32,000 nt of DNA from Salinicoccus sp. HZC-1. Lineage in GTDB: Bacteria > Bacillota > Bacilli > Staphylococcales > Salinicoccaceae. The stretch spans positions 10,954 to 42,953 of the forward strand of contig NZ_CP177130.1 in NCBI RefSeq assembly GCF_046736035.1, given 5' to 3'. The number at the start of each line of letters is the position of its first letter. Positions within the stretch are counted from its first letter, which is position 1. Of the stretch, positions 27,633 through 32,000 are shown in pieces. The notes under the pieces are model-generated. The model did no database searches. It saw only the letters and a list, made by a program, of their open reading frames with translations, and was not told the origin of the DNA. A program made the position numbers and the translations under genes.

Positions 27633-27653
27633 GTCATAAATATGCATATAAAA

Positions 27654-27695
27654 AATAAGGGATACATCTTTTATACACAAGATGTATCCCTTATT
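27654..27695. terminator. bidirectional terminator between walJ and the convergent orphan gene
   Basis: A 16-bp perfect stem, AATAAGGGATACATCT / AGATGTATCCCTTATT, is flanked by an A-run upstream and TATTTTTATTT downstream. Confidence 0.85.
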
Positions 27696-27700
27696 TATTT

Positions 27701-28336
27701 TTATTTCGCATCGAATACTTTGTCCACCCATTCCTCATCGACATCATTTTCAGTAATGCCATTGTCGCTGAATACAATTTCACCGTACGCAGTAAATTTG
27801 TCATTGGTGTATTGATATACAAAAGGAATATGGGACTTTTCGTATAATTTATACATCAGCGCACGGACACCTCTGCCGGCAGTCGTAAAACTGATTTTCA
27901 GGTCGTCCTCATTCACATTTGTATCCATGGCGAAGCCTTTCATGCCCCAATGAACTTTAGTCCATTCATACGCGTCCGGCACTTCATATTTAATAAGATT
28001 TTCGTAGTATTCCTGGCCAAGATCTATTCTTTCTTCAGCGGTAAGAATCTGTTCCTGTTCTTGAGCAGTAGCTTCACTTAAAATTTCATCAATATCAACA
28101 AAAGCGTTTTCCTTCAAATCTTTAATGAGTTTCTTTTGCTCATCTTCGTCCAAAGTATTATAGTAAGAAGCAATTGAAGCATCCTGATAAGGTGCGGCGT
28201 GAATTTCTAACCCCTCGGGTATAGGTTCGATCACATTGAAATCAATCTCTTTATCTTCATTAATGGCAAAATCTATCATCTTTTCGAGGTCGTCCAGTTC
28301 ATGAAATTTAAGTATACTATATGCAAGACTTGGCAT
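27701..28336 (-). CDS. hypothetical highly acidic cytoplasmic protein (family not recognised)
   Basis: A 211-aa ORF with a good terminator, divergent from rlmH. By hand count it has about 48 D/E against about 19 K/R. No TM or signal peptide is apparent. The W-x3-WG-x-KG motif (EWTKVHWGMKGF) is noted but not assignable by eye. Confidence 0.6.
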   Translation of the reverse strand: MPSLAYSILKFHELDDLEKMIDFAINEDKEIDFNVIEPIPEGLEIHAAPYQDASIASYYNTLDEDEQKKLIKDLKENAFVDIDEILSEATAQEQEQILTAEERIDLGQEYYENLIKYEVPDAYEWTKVHWGMKGFAMDTNVNEDDLKISFTTAGRGVRALMYKLYEKSHIPFVYQYTNDKFTAYGEIVFSDNGITENDVDEEWVDKVFDAK

Positions 28337-28434
28337 AGAAACACTCCTTTACATAATATTGGGTATTATCTTAATTATTTAACAGTTTAAACAAACAGTC
28401 AAGGTATTCGTAATAAGGCAAAAGGATGAAAAAA

Positions 28435-28914
28435 ATGAAAATTACTCTAATAACAGTAGGAAAGCTAAAAGAGAAGCATTGGAAACAAGCTGTGGAAGAA
28501 TATAAGAAGCGCATCAGCGGGTATGCAAAGCTCGAGCTGGTTGAAATACCGGATGAAAAAGAACCAAATAATGCGAGCAAAAAAGATATAGACATTATAA
28601 AAGAAAAAGAAGCACAAAAGATACTTGGGAAAATCAAAGATACGCAGTATGTCGTCACTTTGGAAATCAAAGGCAAAGCGTATTCGAGTGAAAGCTTGGC
28701 TGAAGAATATCAAAAATGGATGAACACAGGAAAAAGCGATGTCGTATTCATCATTGGCGGCAGCAACGGTATCGGGGAGAGCGTAAAGAAAAGATCCAAC
28801 CAGGAAATCAGCTTCGGTTCCCTCACCTACCCTCACCAGATGATGAAAGTTATGCTGCTTGAGCAGATATTCAGGGTGAATAAGATTATAAAGAATGAAG
28901 CATATCATCGTTGA
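28435..28914 (+). CDS. rlmH: 23S rRNA (pseudouridine1915-N3)-methyltransferase RlmH (OrfX)
   Basis: Collinear with S. aureus OrfX as I recall it (MKIT..VGKLKEK.WKQA..EY.KR; IGGSNG; PHQMM.V.L.EQ; the C-terminal EAYH.). It is 159 aa from ATG 28435, 8 nt after AAAGGA. The ORF-track start at 28426 adds 3 residues. Confidence 0.93.
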   Translation: MKITLITVGKLKEKHWKQAVEEYKKRISGYAKLELVEIPDEKEPNNASKKDIDIIKEKEAQKILGKIKDTQYVVTLEIKGKAYSSESLAEEYQKWMNTGKSDVVFIIGGSNGIGESVKKRSNQEISFGSLTYPHQMMKVMLLEQIFRVNKIIKNEAYHR

Positions 28915-28920
28915 TGCGGT
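28897..28920 (+). other. SCC-type integration site sequence (attB/ISS-like) at the rlmH 3' end
   Basis: GAAGCATATCATCGTTGATGCGGT(TTTT) compares with the S. aureus orfX ISS, which I recall as GAAGCATATCATAAATGATGCGGTTTTT. They differ only in the 3 nt preceding the TGA stop. The dyad CATC-GTT-GATG is retained. Confidence 0.7.
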
Positions 28921-28953
28921 TTTTATAATTTTGTCAGAAAGGATTATTTAATT

Positions 28954-29997
28954 ATGAAAGTGGATGTTTTTTTAGATTCCAATATTTTGTTTAATGATTA
29001 TGAGATAATTAACCACAGATTAAGTGATTTAGTTGAATGGTTTGAGAAAGAAAAAATTGAATATAGCTTGTGTATAGCTGAAATGACCTATCATGAATTG
29101 CTAAAGAAATTTGATAATAATGTTAAAAGTATGATAGCTGAATTTAAAAAAGTAAATAAAGATCATAAAGCCCTTCGTCGTCTACATTATAATATTGAAG
29201 AACTGAAAGAGCATCATGTTTCACTGAAAGAAGAATATGAAAATAGACTAAGAGAAAAATTTGAAATAATAACTCCTAGTGCTGATGCTAATAAAAATGT
29301 TTTTGAAAGATATTATGATGATCTTTCACCTTTCAAAAATGAAAAAAAAGAATTCCAAGATGCTTTGATTTGGGAAACTATTTTCGAACATAGTCAGTGT
29401 TTGGAGAACCAAGATGCTATTTGGTTTGTATCTTCTGACAAAAAAGCATTTTACAATAGTATTGAAAATGGACTGGATAGCGATTTTGAACATGATGGGA
29501 ATATCTTTTTCTATCGAAACCTAAATGATCTTTTAGAAGAGAAAGATGTCTTGATAGATGATTTATTGTTTGAAAATATTGAAGAGATAACTGAAGATTT
29601 CCAAAACGATATGAATAATAAAGTTAGAGATTTTTATATTATAGAGGAAAACATTTTAGATTTTTTAGAAGACTATATACTTAATAATAACTTTATTTCA
29701 GAATATGCTGATGAAGGCTGGGGGACCGATCTTTATGTTTATAATATAGAGCTTTCAGAACTACATTATGCAGATGGTTATAGAAGTACGTCTCATATAT
29801 ACTTGCCGGCCACTATGAGTGTAGAATTTGAATTTAATATTGAAACACGTAATCCGGTTTATGAAAAAGGAGATACTGATTTTGAACAAAATATAATTAT
29901 TGGAGAGGAGAGTCGTAATGCAGATATTGACTGTATTCTAGTTTACGACTTGAAGAACAGACATGTAGTTGATGTTGAACAAATAGAATTTCAATAG
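28954..29997 (+). CDS. PIN-like (DUF4935-type) predicted nuclease with an unassigned C-terminal domain
   Basis: 347 aa. PIN-like acidic positions are seen at D8 (VFLDSNIL), E43/E48 (AEMTYHEL), D136 (EFQDALIWE) and D162 (WFVSSDKKAF). A charged helical insert of about 80 aa lies between the E and the third D. Residues about 200-347 have no motif I recognise. Sampled GC is very low (about 28%). Confidence 0.6.
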   Translation: MKVDVFLDSNILFNDYEIINHRLSDLVEWFEKEKIEYSLCIAEMTYHELLKKFDNNVKSMIAEFKKVNKDHKALRRLHYNIEELKEHHVSLKEEYENRLREKFEIITPSADANKNVFERYYDDLSPFKNEKKEFQDALIWETIFEHSQCLENQDAIWFVSSDKKAFYNSIENGLDSDFEHDGNIFFYRNLNDLLEEKDVLIDDLLFENIEEITEDFQNDMNNKVRDFYIIEENILDFLEDYILNNNFISEYADEGWGTDLYVYNIELSELHYADGYRSTSHIYLPATMSVEFEFNIETRNPVYEKGDTDFEQNIIIGEESRNADIDCILVYDLKNRHVVDVEQIEFQ

Positions 29998-30120
29998 GAA
30001 CAGAAAGATTACATTATTAATTTTGTTAAAACTATATATGATTTGTAATGGTAATCAATTAAATCACTTATTGTACTTTGGTATATTTATAGCATATAAG
30101 AAAAATCGGAGAGTGAGACT

Positions 30121-31605
30121 ATGTCTAAACTAACATTACCACAATTAGAAGCCCATTTATGGGAGTCAGCAAATATACTAAGAGGTTCGATTGATTCCTC
30201 TGATTATAAAAACTATATATTTGGATTATTATTTTTGAAGCGTTTGAGTGACGTATTTATAGAGACAGCTAAGAAGGTCGAGCGAAAAGAAGGTGACGAT
30301 TATGCATGGTATGATCGTGATGAACACCAGTTCTTTGTACCTGAAAGAGCCCGATGGACAGAAATCCAAATACAAACTCATGACATCGGTAATACAATCA
30401 ATAAAGCTTTTGAGGCTCTAGAGGAAGAAAACCCTTCTCTAGTGGGTGTACTTGCCAATATTGACTTTAATGACAAAGAAAAACTGCCCGATAAATTATT
30501 GCTGCAACTCATTCAACATTTCTCAAAGATTGATCTCAGTAATGATAGTTTATCAGAACCGGATATGTTAGGCCGTGCATATGAGTATTTAATTAAACAG
30601 TTCGCAGATGATGCTGGTAAAAAAGGTGGGGAATTCTACACCCCTTCCAAAGTAGTTGAATTGATTGTTAACTTAATTAAACCAGAAGAAGGCATGCGAG
30701 TATGTGACCCTACGGTTGGTTCAGGCGGTATGCTCATTCAGTCTGTAGACTATATCAAATCACAAGGTGGTAATCCGCGTAATTTATCACTGCATGGACA
30801 GGAGAGAAACCTGAGTACATGGTCCATATGTAAGATGAATTTACTTCTCCATGGTTTGAGTGATCATCGCATTGAGCGTGGTGACACCATACGTGAACCA
30901 AAGCTATTAGGTGATGATAAAGAACTATTATTATATGACAGAGTTATCGCCAATCCACCTTTCTCGCTTAAAAACTGGGGGAGAGAAGAAGCAGAGAGCG
31001 ATGAATATGGTCGTTTCAGGTTTGGTATTCCTCCTAAAAATGCAGGTGACTTTGCATTCGTTCAACATATGATAGCTACACTTAATCATGACGGTAAAGC
31101 TGGTGTGGTTATGCCTCATGGAGTACTATTCCGTGGTGGTGCTGAAGGTAAGATCAGAGAAGGTCTACTAAAAGAAGATGTAATAGAAGCAATTATTGGT
31201 CTACCCTCTTCTTTATTCTATGGTACTGGAATTCCAGCGAGCATCTTAATTCTGAACCGAAATAAAGAAGAAAAGCAAAAAGGAAAAGTTTTCATATTAG
31301 ATGGTTCAAAAGATTACCAAGAAGGTAAAAACCAAAATATTCTTCGTGATAAAGATATAAAAAAAGTAATAAGTGCATATGATAAATGGGAAGGTAAAGA
31401 AAAATATTGTCGAGTAGTCAATATAGAAGAAACACAAGAGAATGATTACAACTTAAATATTGCCCGTTATATTGATACCACTGAAGAAGAAGAAGAGATT
31501 GATGTACAGACCGCACTAAATGATTTGAAGAAATTAGAGCAGGATAGAAATGAAATAGAGGAAAAGATGTTTGGGTATTTAAAGGAGCTTGGATATGATG
31601 AGTAA
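30121..31605 (+). CDS. hsdM: type I restriction-modification system, DNA methyltransferase subunit M
   Basis: 494 aa with an HsdM N-terminal domain ([32 protein letters not shown]). The AdoMet motif I is [10 protein letters not shown] and the catalytic motif IV is NPPF. Confidence 0.93.
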
Positions 31606-32000
31606 TCATTCTAGTTGGACAACAAAATCTTTTTCAGAATGTGTAGATAAAATTATTGATCATCGTGGAAAGACCCCTAAAAAGTTAGGTTTAGAATGGG
31701 GGAATGGTAATATACTGGCTCTGTCAGCTAACAATGTAAAAAAAGGGAAAATTGACACCTCAATAGAAGCATATTATGGATCTGATGAACTTTATGACAA
31801 ATGGATGACTAACGGAAAAGTCAATAAAGGCGATGTCATTATGACTATGGAAGCACCTCTGGGCAATGTCACTCAAATCCCTGACACTAAAAAATATATA
31901 TTAAGTCAAAGAGTTGCGGCCTTTAAAACAATAGAAGATATAGACGATGATTATTTTAAGTATTATCTCTCTTCTAGTAAATTTCAAAATTTGCTTGATA
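31595..32000 (+). CDS. hsdS: type I restriction-modification specificity subunit S, 3'-truncated by the window edge
   Basis: The frame is open from ATGATG (31595/31598), overlapping the hsdM stop, to the end of the window. The translation [30 protein letters not shown]...[12 protein letters not shown]...[11 protein letters not shown] is a typical HsdS target-recognition domain. It is absent from the ORF track because it has no stop in the window. Confidence 0.88.

Follow-up and report, generated by a model that had tools for sequence, protein, structure and literature searches.

A PIN_12 (DUF4935) family gene as mobile cargo beside rlmH in Salinicoccus sp. HZC-1, a candidate stand-alone defence nuclease

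Matelska et al. (2017, PMC5499597) described the members of the DUF4935 family as proteins of about 350 amino acids (aa). As described there, their N-terminal domain is PIN-like, falls into the VapC group and bears four to five acidic residues; strand S2 is followed by a long insert of helices, and the alpha/beta region at the C-terminus has no known structural homologue. The family, since renamed PIN_12 (PF16289), has a single validated member, DS-5B, which is also the only experimental link from the family to a function. DS-5B belongs to the DS-5 anti-phage system, which was validated in E. coli and consists of DS-5A (DUF5830 and AcrIF4-like) and DS-5B (DefensePredictor, PMC13092281). DS-5B (WP_021513009.1, 376 aa) was assigned to PIN_12 by the HHpred annotation of its authors; the mutants D7A and E44A lost defence, and deletion of DS-5A abolished defence and showed no toxicity (PMC13092281). 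DS-3 is a single-protein PIN defence without antitoxin, for which auto-inhibition was proposed by the authors (PMC13092281). In S. aureus, one gene, encoding the Abi_C/HEPN RNase SadR (an AbiJ homologue), was shown to block both phages and plasmids by itself (Kondo et al. 2026, PMC13590631), and this gene occurs outside or inside staphylococcal cassette chromosome (SCC) elements (PMC13590631). The slot downstream of rlmH is a documented hotspot of Staphylococcaceae that is enriched in defences (PMC11470126; hotspot also PMC13590631). Here we analysed a window of 32,000 nucleotides from Salinicoccus sp. HZC-1, placed in the family Staphylococcaceae, in which a PIN_12 family gene lies between rlmH and the hsdM-hsdS genes of a type I restriction-modification (R-M) system. 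An initial annotation of this gene had favoured a PrrC/RloC-like effector tied to the adjacent R-M system and had kept an independent single-gene defence system as a fallback. Our analysis finds the fallback better supported than the R-M-tied effector, and we give a probability of roughly 0.55 to the reading that the gene encodes a stand-alone nuclease for conflict between mobile elements, directed against phages or plasmids.

The window protein is a member of the PIN_12 family. It matches PF16289 with 70.1 bits (gathering score 32; E = 3.9e-19) over the full domain profile (positions 1-172 of 172) and is 100% identical to the NCBI entry "PIN domain-containing protein" of Salinicoccus sp. HZC-1. 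An AlphaFold2 model of the full protein was built on 11 full-length relatives and reached a mean predicted local distance difference test (pLDDT) of 76.8. In this model residues 1-187 form a PIN alpha/beta/alpha core that is split by a helical hairpin, and Foldseek compared this N-terminal part best with VapC toxins (probability 1.00, target-normalised template modelling (TM) score 0.57-0.67). Profile score and VapC-type fold thus bear out the DUF4935/PIN-like assignment made from the letters alone, and the long charged helical insert claimed there corresponds to the two helices of the model (Table 1). The published description of DUF4935 fits the window protein in length, insert, C-terminal region, acidic site and monocistronic state. 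As the insert and the C-terminal half were published as family traits already in 2017 (PMC5499597), they are not special to this protein.

The label "orphan", in contrast, was wrong. A profile search returned about 11 relatives of full length, from metagenomes and from the genera Salinicoccus, Staphylococcus, Sporosarcina and Sporolactobacillus, and 464 PIN_12 representatives were found at E <= 1e-3 among 1.84 billion proteins, many of which align end to end. The window gene itself was seen in one genome and one metagenome contig. Nothing essential separates its product from the rest of PIN_12; it belongs to a small Bacillales/Staphylococcaceae subgroup with C-terminal motifs of its own, EGWG and NPxYE. 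Scans of the window protein against NCBIfam, PADLOC 2.0 and PHROGs gave no meaningful match, and a PDB sequence search that included the family profile gave no match.

Conservation of the acidic site was read from an alignment of 190 PIN_12 family sequences. Position 8 is aspartate in all 179 sequences aligned there and position 136 in all 187, while position 48 is glutamate in 180 sequences and aspartate in three. The fourth acidic residue has two alternative sites, of which D162 of the window protein is the rarer: positions 162 and 165 read N...D in 165 sequences and D...A in four, the window protein among them. Position 162 is Asp in six of the nine sequences without an acidic residue at 165, as against 7/176 otherwise. 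The covariation suggests a shift in place, and not a loss, of the fourth acidic residue, and an acidic quartet is kept in 173 of the 176 fully aligned sequences. Both arrangements occur in active PIN nucleases, the "TxD" type as well as the "TNNxxEF" type, as in Shigella VapC. The acidic residues that the initial annotation had named were found at their positions with the site intact, the frame is open over all 347 aa and every invariant family position is retained. As judged from sequence, the acidic site of the window protein therefore looks functional.

The C-terminal half had been called unnameable, and it indeed remained without match in Pfam, NCBIfam, PADLOC, PHROGs and PDB sequences. 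It is modelled as three helices (190-243) followed by four long antiparallel strands (254-346), and its conserved motifs are E254-G-W-G257 and N300-P-x-Y-E304. A separate model of residues 186-347 reached a pLDDT of 77.6 and a predicted TM-score (pTM) of 0.64. Its matches in the PDB are weak (best E = 9e-3, TM about 0.3) and are consistently NTF2-like or cone-shaped alpha+beta folds, namely PARC6/ARC6, TcpC, Mtr2, scytalone dehydratase and ketosteroid isomerase; we regard this as a weak resemblance of the predicted model and not as an assignment. Among viral models the best match was a siphovirus protein of 366 aa annotated as "PIN like domain" (probability 1.00, query-normalised TM-score 0.45, 147 columns), which indicates that the two-domain architecture exists in phages. 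With an iterated C-terminal profile the domain was seen only 3' of a PIN domain or in gene fragments. A word-indexed protein search with the C-terminal-only profile missed even the entry of the query itself, so that its empty result is a limitation of the tool; a local hidden Markov model (HMM) search with the identical profile recovered 41-57 family members, and negatives of the word-indexed search with such short divergent profiles are untrustworthy. A subgroup of distant PIN_12 proteins of about 388 aa (P0028, P0031, P0035 and P0043) carries, at alignment columns 460-485, an additional C-terminal CxxC...CxxC tail resembling a zinc ribbon, a tail that the window protein does not have.

The PIN_12 gene is horizontally acquired cargo and the first gene past an SCC-type attachment (att) core at the 3' end of rlmH. 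rlmH is the chromosomal anchor gene, in whose 3' end the SCC-type attachment site lies. The core in the window, GAAGCATATCATCGTTGATGCGGTTTTT, differs in three bases from the SCCmec inverted repeat CATATCATAAATGATGCGGTTTTT, which occurs exactly in the homologue loci L001 and L002; SCC attachment repeat sequences are listed in PMC13590631. No second copy of the core (the GAAGCNTATCAT... repeat) was detected within the window, which stops 3 kb into the element. The PIN_12 gene has a GC content of 28.4%, and of 20% at third codon positions (GC3); rlmH has 38.9% GC, hsdM 36.8% and the remainder of the window 44.5%.

The borders of the acquired segment became visible by comparison with L016, a metagenome contig of 1659 bp with the same gene arrangement (Table 1). 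The last mismatch ahead of the 99.9% identical tract is at 28902, which places the left break at 28902/28903, inside the att core. As this tract is flanked by a diverged rlmH tail, the segment bearing the PIN_12 gene was evidently exchanged recently between diverged Salinicoccus backgrounds. On the other side the identity falls 83 bp into hsdM, which puts a recombination breakpoint inside the N-terminal coding region of hsdM and not at the gene boundary.

Table 1. Features of the window and of the compared loci. Positions refer to the window unless a locus is named.
Feature	Position	Strand	Basis or result
rlmH, 23S rRNA methyltransferase, SPOUT family	28426..28914	+	Pfam SPOUT_MTase 189 bits, E = 6.7e-56
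SCC-type attachment core GAAGCATATCATCGTTGATGCGGTTTTT	28897..28924	+	overlaps rlmH stop codon; last rlmH bases and 10 bases past the stop
PIN_12 (DUF4935) family gene, 347 aa	28954..29997	+	open reading frame (ORF), ATG start
N-terminal PIN_12 nuclease domain, aa 5-166	28966..29451	+	Pfam PF16289
Long charged helical hairpin within the PIN domain, aa 43-102	29080..29259	+	AlphaFold2 helices 43-75 and 81-102
Candidate metal-binding residues D8; E48; D136; D162	28975-28977; 29095-29097; 29359-29361; 29437-29439	+	family conservation
Family-specific C-terminal domain, aa 188-347	29515..29994	+	AlphaFold2 models, motifs
AT-rich spacer between PIN_12 gene and hsdM, 123 bp, 23.6% GC	29998..30120	+	ORF coordinates, composition
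hsdM, type I R-M methyltransferase subunit	30121..31605	+	Pfam HsdM_N and N6_Mtase
hsdS, 5' part	31602..32000	+	open frame from ATG 31602; overlaps hsdM stop codon, continues past window end
rlmH tail compared with L016	28801-28902		25/102 mismatches, ~75% identity
Att core, PIN_12 gene, spacer and first 83 bp of hsdM compared with L016	28903-30203		1/1301 mismatches, 99.9% identity
hsdM compared with L016	30204-30459		16/256 mismatches, ~94% identity
Regions in which a PIN_12 gene abuts xtrA	L006 9801-11050; L009 1862-3094; L012 4145-5422; L004 9876-11047		xtrA remnant in L004
RosmerTA pair in staphylococcal PIN_12 cassette	L017 13517-15436 (= L001 3917-5803)		PADLOC: RmrT 94 bits, RmrA 396 bits

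The closest homologue (P0002) shares 36% identity over the full length and likewise occupies the rlmH slot, here of staphylococci, where walJ, rlmH, att, PIN_12 and a remnant of hsdM follow one another. It is part of a cassette of 6.8-7.1 kb without ccr genes that has att repeats at both bounds; in L017 three such repeats were observed against 0.0015 expected from shuffled sequences. Beyond the att repeat follow a type II methyltransferase and a ResIII protein. The cassette also carries a RosmerTA pair, whose proteins received only the Pfam labels DUF5986 and helix-turn-helix (HTH) plus Peptidase_M78. At >=90% identity the P0002 cluster includes S. hominis, S. epidermidis, S. arlettae, S. xylosus, S. 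equorum and Mammaliicoccus sciuri. The first two carry intact copies, and for the other four only pieces of 69-252 aa are recorded.

Other homologues are found in prophages and small islands. In three of them (P0011 from Sporolactobacillus terrae, P0010 and P0004) the gene is located in a prophage directly after xtrA and ahead of a block of sigma-like, HNH and terminase genes, and in P0008 it lies in a prophage 3.5 kb after xtrA. The gene of Sporosarcina luteola (P0007) is located on a small island where an uncalled xtrA remnant abuts the gene start, and this location is probably a prophage relic; that of another Sporosarcina sp. (P0006) adjoins an Abi_alpha gene on a small island. Altogether the PIN_12 gene starts at, or a few bases from, the stop codon of xtrA (PF17356) in four Bacillales lineages. 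The slot next to xtrA looks like a variable accessory hotspot of these Bacillales prophages. In L011 the position directly after xtrA is taken by an unrelated 372-aa protein without family match, and the PIN_12 gene follows 3.5 kb onward. XtrA was considered as a DS-5A-like partner and rejected, as it matches PF17356 only and DS-5A has no tblastn match in any locus bearing xtrA.

The neighbourhoods of distant PIN_12 members include R-M, abortive infection (Abi) and toxin-antitoxin genes. One such member (P0028) is flanked by hsdS and hsdR in a type I locus that comes with a 5-methylcytosine methylase/Vsr gene and toxin-antitoxin modules, another (P0022) is found two genes upstream of a DpnII/MboI-type enzyme, and a third (P0044) near HigB/M78-type modules. 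A member on an Arthrobacter plasmid is surrounded by dcm, a GIY-YIG nuclease, AIPR, EAD1 and recombinases, and one on a plasmid of B. thuringiensis adjoins XerS amid cry toxin genes. Scans of IMG/VR and of plasmids gave distant PIN-domain matches only.

Around the window gene the distances given in the initial annotation proved exact, with 39 bp between the end of rlmH and the PIN_12 gene and 123 bp from there to hsdM. The claimed lack of a terminator was upheld as well, no terminator-like site being found between rlmH and the PIN_12 gene; nor is there a terminator-like hairpin in the spacer downstream. In a promoter scan the match frequency was not above that of shuffled sequence, and the 39-bp gap had no match at all. 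As this gap offers neither a terminator nor room for a promoter, the PIN_12 gene is probably transcribed by read-through from rlmH. No ORF was found in the 39-bp and 123-bp flanks, and an Rfam search within and beside the gene gave no match. RlmH of the window is 57-58% identical to the staphylococcal RlmH of L002 and L017. The overlap of hsdM and hsdS is the arrangement also found in Salinicoccus roseus, where hsdS carries Methylase_S; the hsdS call in the window rests on its open frame and on this arrangement.

On the opposite side of rlmH, between walJ/yycJ and rlmH, an ORF of 211 aa is located on the minus strand (27701-28336), which is matched weakly by phrog_12644 of PHROGs (E = 9e-7) and below threshold by DUF1281_C. 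The equivalent gap of the staphylococcal contig L017 contains no ORF of at least 70 aa, and the exact 211-aa sequence is absent from the protein collection. This ORF may be a second accessory gene. Between walJ and this ORF, at 27646-27736, sub-threshold Rfam matches were obtained on both strands (e.g., sau-5971 with 32 bits against a cutoff of 90), which probably reflect a hairpin, for instance a terminator acting in both directions, rather than a genuine small RNA.

The preferred idea of the initial annotation was a guard of the neighbouring R-M system: the PIN_12 nuclease would be kept latent by HsdM/HsdS, possibly with HsdR, and would fire once a phage anti-restriction protein disables the enzyme. 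PrrC acts in this manner, being masked by the type I R-M enzyme EcoprrI and triggered by a phage anti-restriction protein. The PIN_12 gene shares its strand with hsdM-hsdS, no terminator separates them, and the tract shared with L016 takes in the spacer and the beginning of hsdM. In addition, two lineages, whose PIN_12 proteins and HsdM N-termini are each only about 36% identical, have both retained a PIN_12 gene ahead of hsdM or of what remains of it; a guard would explain this order at rlmH as well as the distant member between hsdS and hsdR, and back-up defences are known to be recognisable by their location inside type I R-M loci (bioRxiv 10.1101/2024.01.29.577857). However, S. roseus carries a complete hsdM-hsdS-hsdR operon, the hsdM of which is 85.6% identical in DNA to that of the window, at another defence island and not at rlmH, and without a PIN_12 gene. 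The DNA homology of this S. roseus locus with the window is restricted to 30101-31598; it starts 20 bp before the ATG of hsdM and runs from the ribosome-binding site to the end of the gene. The S. roseus island around hsdMSR (L028/L029 4708-21482) also encodes a GmrSD_N protein, DUF4357, a YgjP-like protein, McrBC and a NERD/UvrD-like helicase. Conversely, S. hominis and S. epidermidis keep an intact orthologue next to an hsdM of which only a 120-aa remnant is left, and in six of nine lineages with close homologues there is no R-M neighbour. The window gene lies upstream of hsdM and outside the operon, its GC3 differs from that of hsdM (27%), and its product lacks an ABC-ATPase or HEPN anticodon-nuclease domain in Pfam and PADLOC. 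The PIN_12 gene and the hsd operon are separable, independent modules, and the position next to hsdMS probably reflects a shared defence island and not a functional partnership. As most other homologues reside in prophages without R-M genes, and given the composition and recombination history of the gene itself, the tie to R-M is weakened further. We consider an R-M-coupled guard improbable, and a little more so its specific form, a PIN-based analogue of PrrC with a C-terminal domain that senses inhibition of HsdM/HsdS. What stands of the earlier proposal is the general idea of a defence nuclease, in view of the validated PIN_12 protein DS-5B (PMC13092281) and the rlmH hotspot; the functional coupling to R-M is not supported.

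Two further explanations concern the benefit of the gene. It could serve the element that carries it, for example by shut-off of host or competitor RNA in lytic growth, by counter-defence or by exclusion of rival elements at the att site, or it could stabilise the cassette as a toxin of the addiction type. Prophages harbour four or five of the homologue lineages, at a fixed place between xtrA and the late/packaging genes, a siphovirus protein has the same two-domain architecture, the remaining copies are on cassettes and plasmids, and neither a cognate antitoxin nor a partner gene is present. All this would fit such a role, which we rate as unlikely though clearly ahead of an R-M guard. Accessory slots of prophages are also classic places of prophage-encoded defence, so that location does not discriminate, and the only family member tested so far acts in defence (PMC13092281). 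That 50,697 cultured-phage records contain no homologue by tblastn argues against a core lytic function, and the cassette and chromosomal copies are separate from any phage programme. Alternatively, the gene could have no role at present, as an inert PIN-like passenger that is decaying or lacks catalytic activity. The D-K-K-A of the window protein departs from the family motif N162-x-K-D165, the staphylococcal orthologues are frequently fragmented and the gene is known from a single genome and one metagenome contig. But the reading frame is intact with every invariant position kept, D162/A165 recurs in four family sequences and covaries as expected for relocation and not for loss, and the acquisition is very recent, with one difference in 1301 bp. 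Inertness appears to us about as improbable as the guard.

Some observations count against a stand-alone defence nuclease as well. DS-5B is only distantly related to the window protein (hhalign E = 4.7e-4, 18% identity over 216 columns). It requires DS-5A, of which no homologue was found by tblastn at E <= 1 in the window and the 29 fetched loci, and a solo PIN_12 protein may therefore not suffice for defence. None of the 50,697 cultured-phage records gave a match, and the staphylococcal orthologue is often fragmented, as would fit a dispensable or costly gene. There may also be some relationship to R-M, considering the PIN_12-hsdM adjacency in two lineages and the distant member between hsdS and hsdR. 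A sensor role of the C-terminal domain is speculation, given its weak fold assignment. PADLOC 2.0 did not recognise the window protein, but this says little, as DS-5B has no PADLOC match either. Family, fold, conserved catalytic residues, mobility, the junction at the att site and the independence of the modules are what the analysis shows.

In the stand-alone defence reading, the gene, as mobile cargo at the SCC-type att core in the rlmH 3' end, would be transcribed at low level by read-through from rlmH. The N-terminal PIN domain would be a metal-dependent nuclease, probably an RNase, which its own C-terminal domain would keep inactive before infection. Infection would then release the enzyme, and cleavage of RNA would stop either the invader or the cell it has entered. 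We infer that the substrate is RNA, that the C-terminal domain is auto-inhibitory and that the gene acts in defence.

The PIN_12 family and its architecture, the defence role of one member and the rlmH hotspot are already published. New are the assignment of a solo PIN_12 subgroup to two places, the rlmH/SCC site and the xtrA slot of Bacillales prophages, the sharply bounded recombination tract shared with L016, the covariation of the active-site positions 162 and 165 and the separability of the gene from the neighbouring R-M system. The window gene is unexceptional for its family and lies where it would be expected, and its value is that of a well-defined candidate. If the stand-alone reading holds, PIN_12 nucleases can work without a DS-5A partner, the uncharacterised C-terminal domain gains a function as built-in sensor or inhibitor, and a Gram-positive single-gene RNase defence borne by SCC elements and prophages joins SadR at the rlmH hotspot. 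The rlmH site influences the acceptance of SCCmec, phages and plasmids by the different staphylococcal lineages, which makes the orthologue of S. hominis, S. epidermidis and further coagulase-negative staphylococci the more consequential target.

Compared with the known systems, the window gene shares single features with each of them. VapC toxins are the best structural matches of the N-terminal domain and have the same layout of the acidic active site, but they comprise about 130 aa, whereas the window protein has 347 aa with a helical insert and an additional C-terminal domain. A VapBC-type toxin-antitoxin system was rejected, as there is no small ORF between rlmH and the PIN_12 gene and no adjacent antitoxin gene. 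With PrrC and RloC the window gene has in common the place of a latent nuclease gene beside hsd genes and the idea of a second line of defence. However, PrrC and RloC combine ABC-type ATPase and HEPN-type anticodon-nuclease domains, where Pfam finds only PIN_12 in the window protein, and their genes lie within the hsd operon, whereas the window gene lies upstream of hsdM and not between hsdS and hsdR. Furthermore, the PIN_12 family mostly occurs without R-M genes, and the same R-M operon also occurs without the PIN_12 gene. SadR resembles the window gene as a single-gene nuclease directly 3' of rlmH at the SCC attachment site; it belongs to the unrelated Abi_C/HEPN family, and homology was rejected as neither Abi_C nor HEPN is matched in Pfam or PADLOC, so that the analogy is positional and conceptual. 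DS-5B shares the family itself (64.4 bits against PF16289 in our own scan). The C-terminal halves of the two proteins have no HMM-detectable relation, but the order of the domains is the same, and the essential residues D7 and E44 of DS-5B align with D8 and E48 of the window protein.

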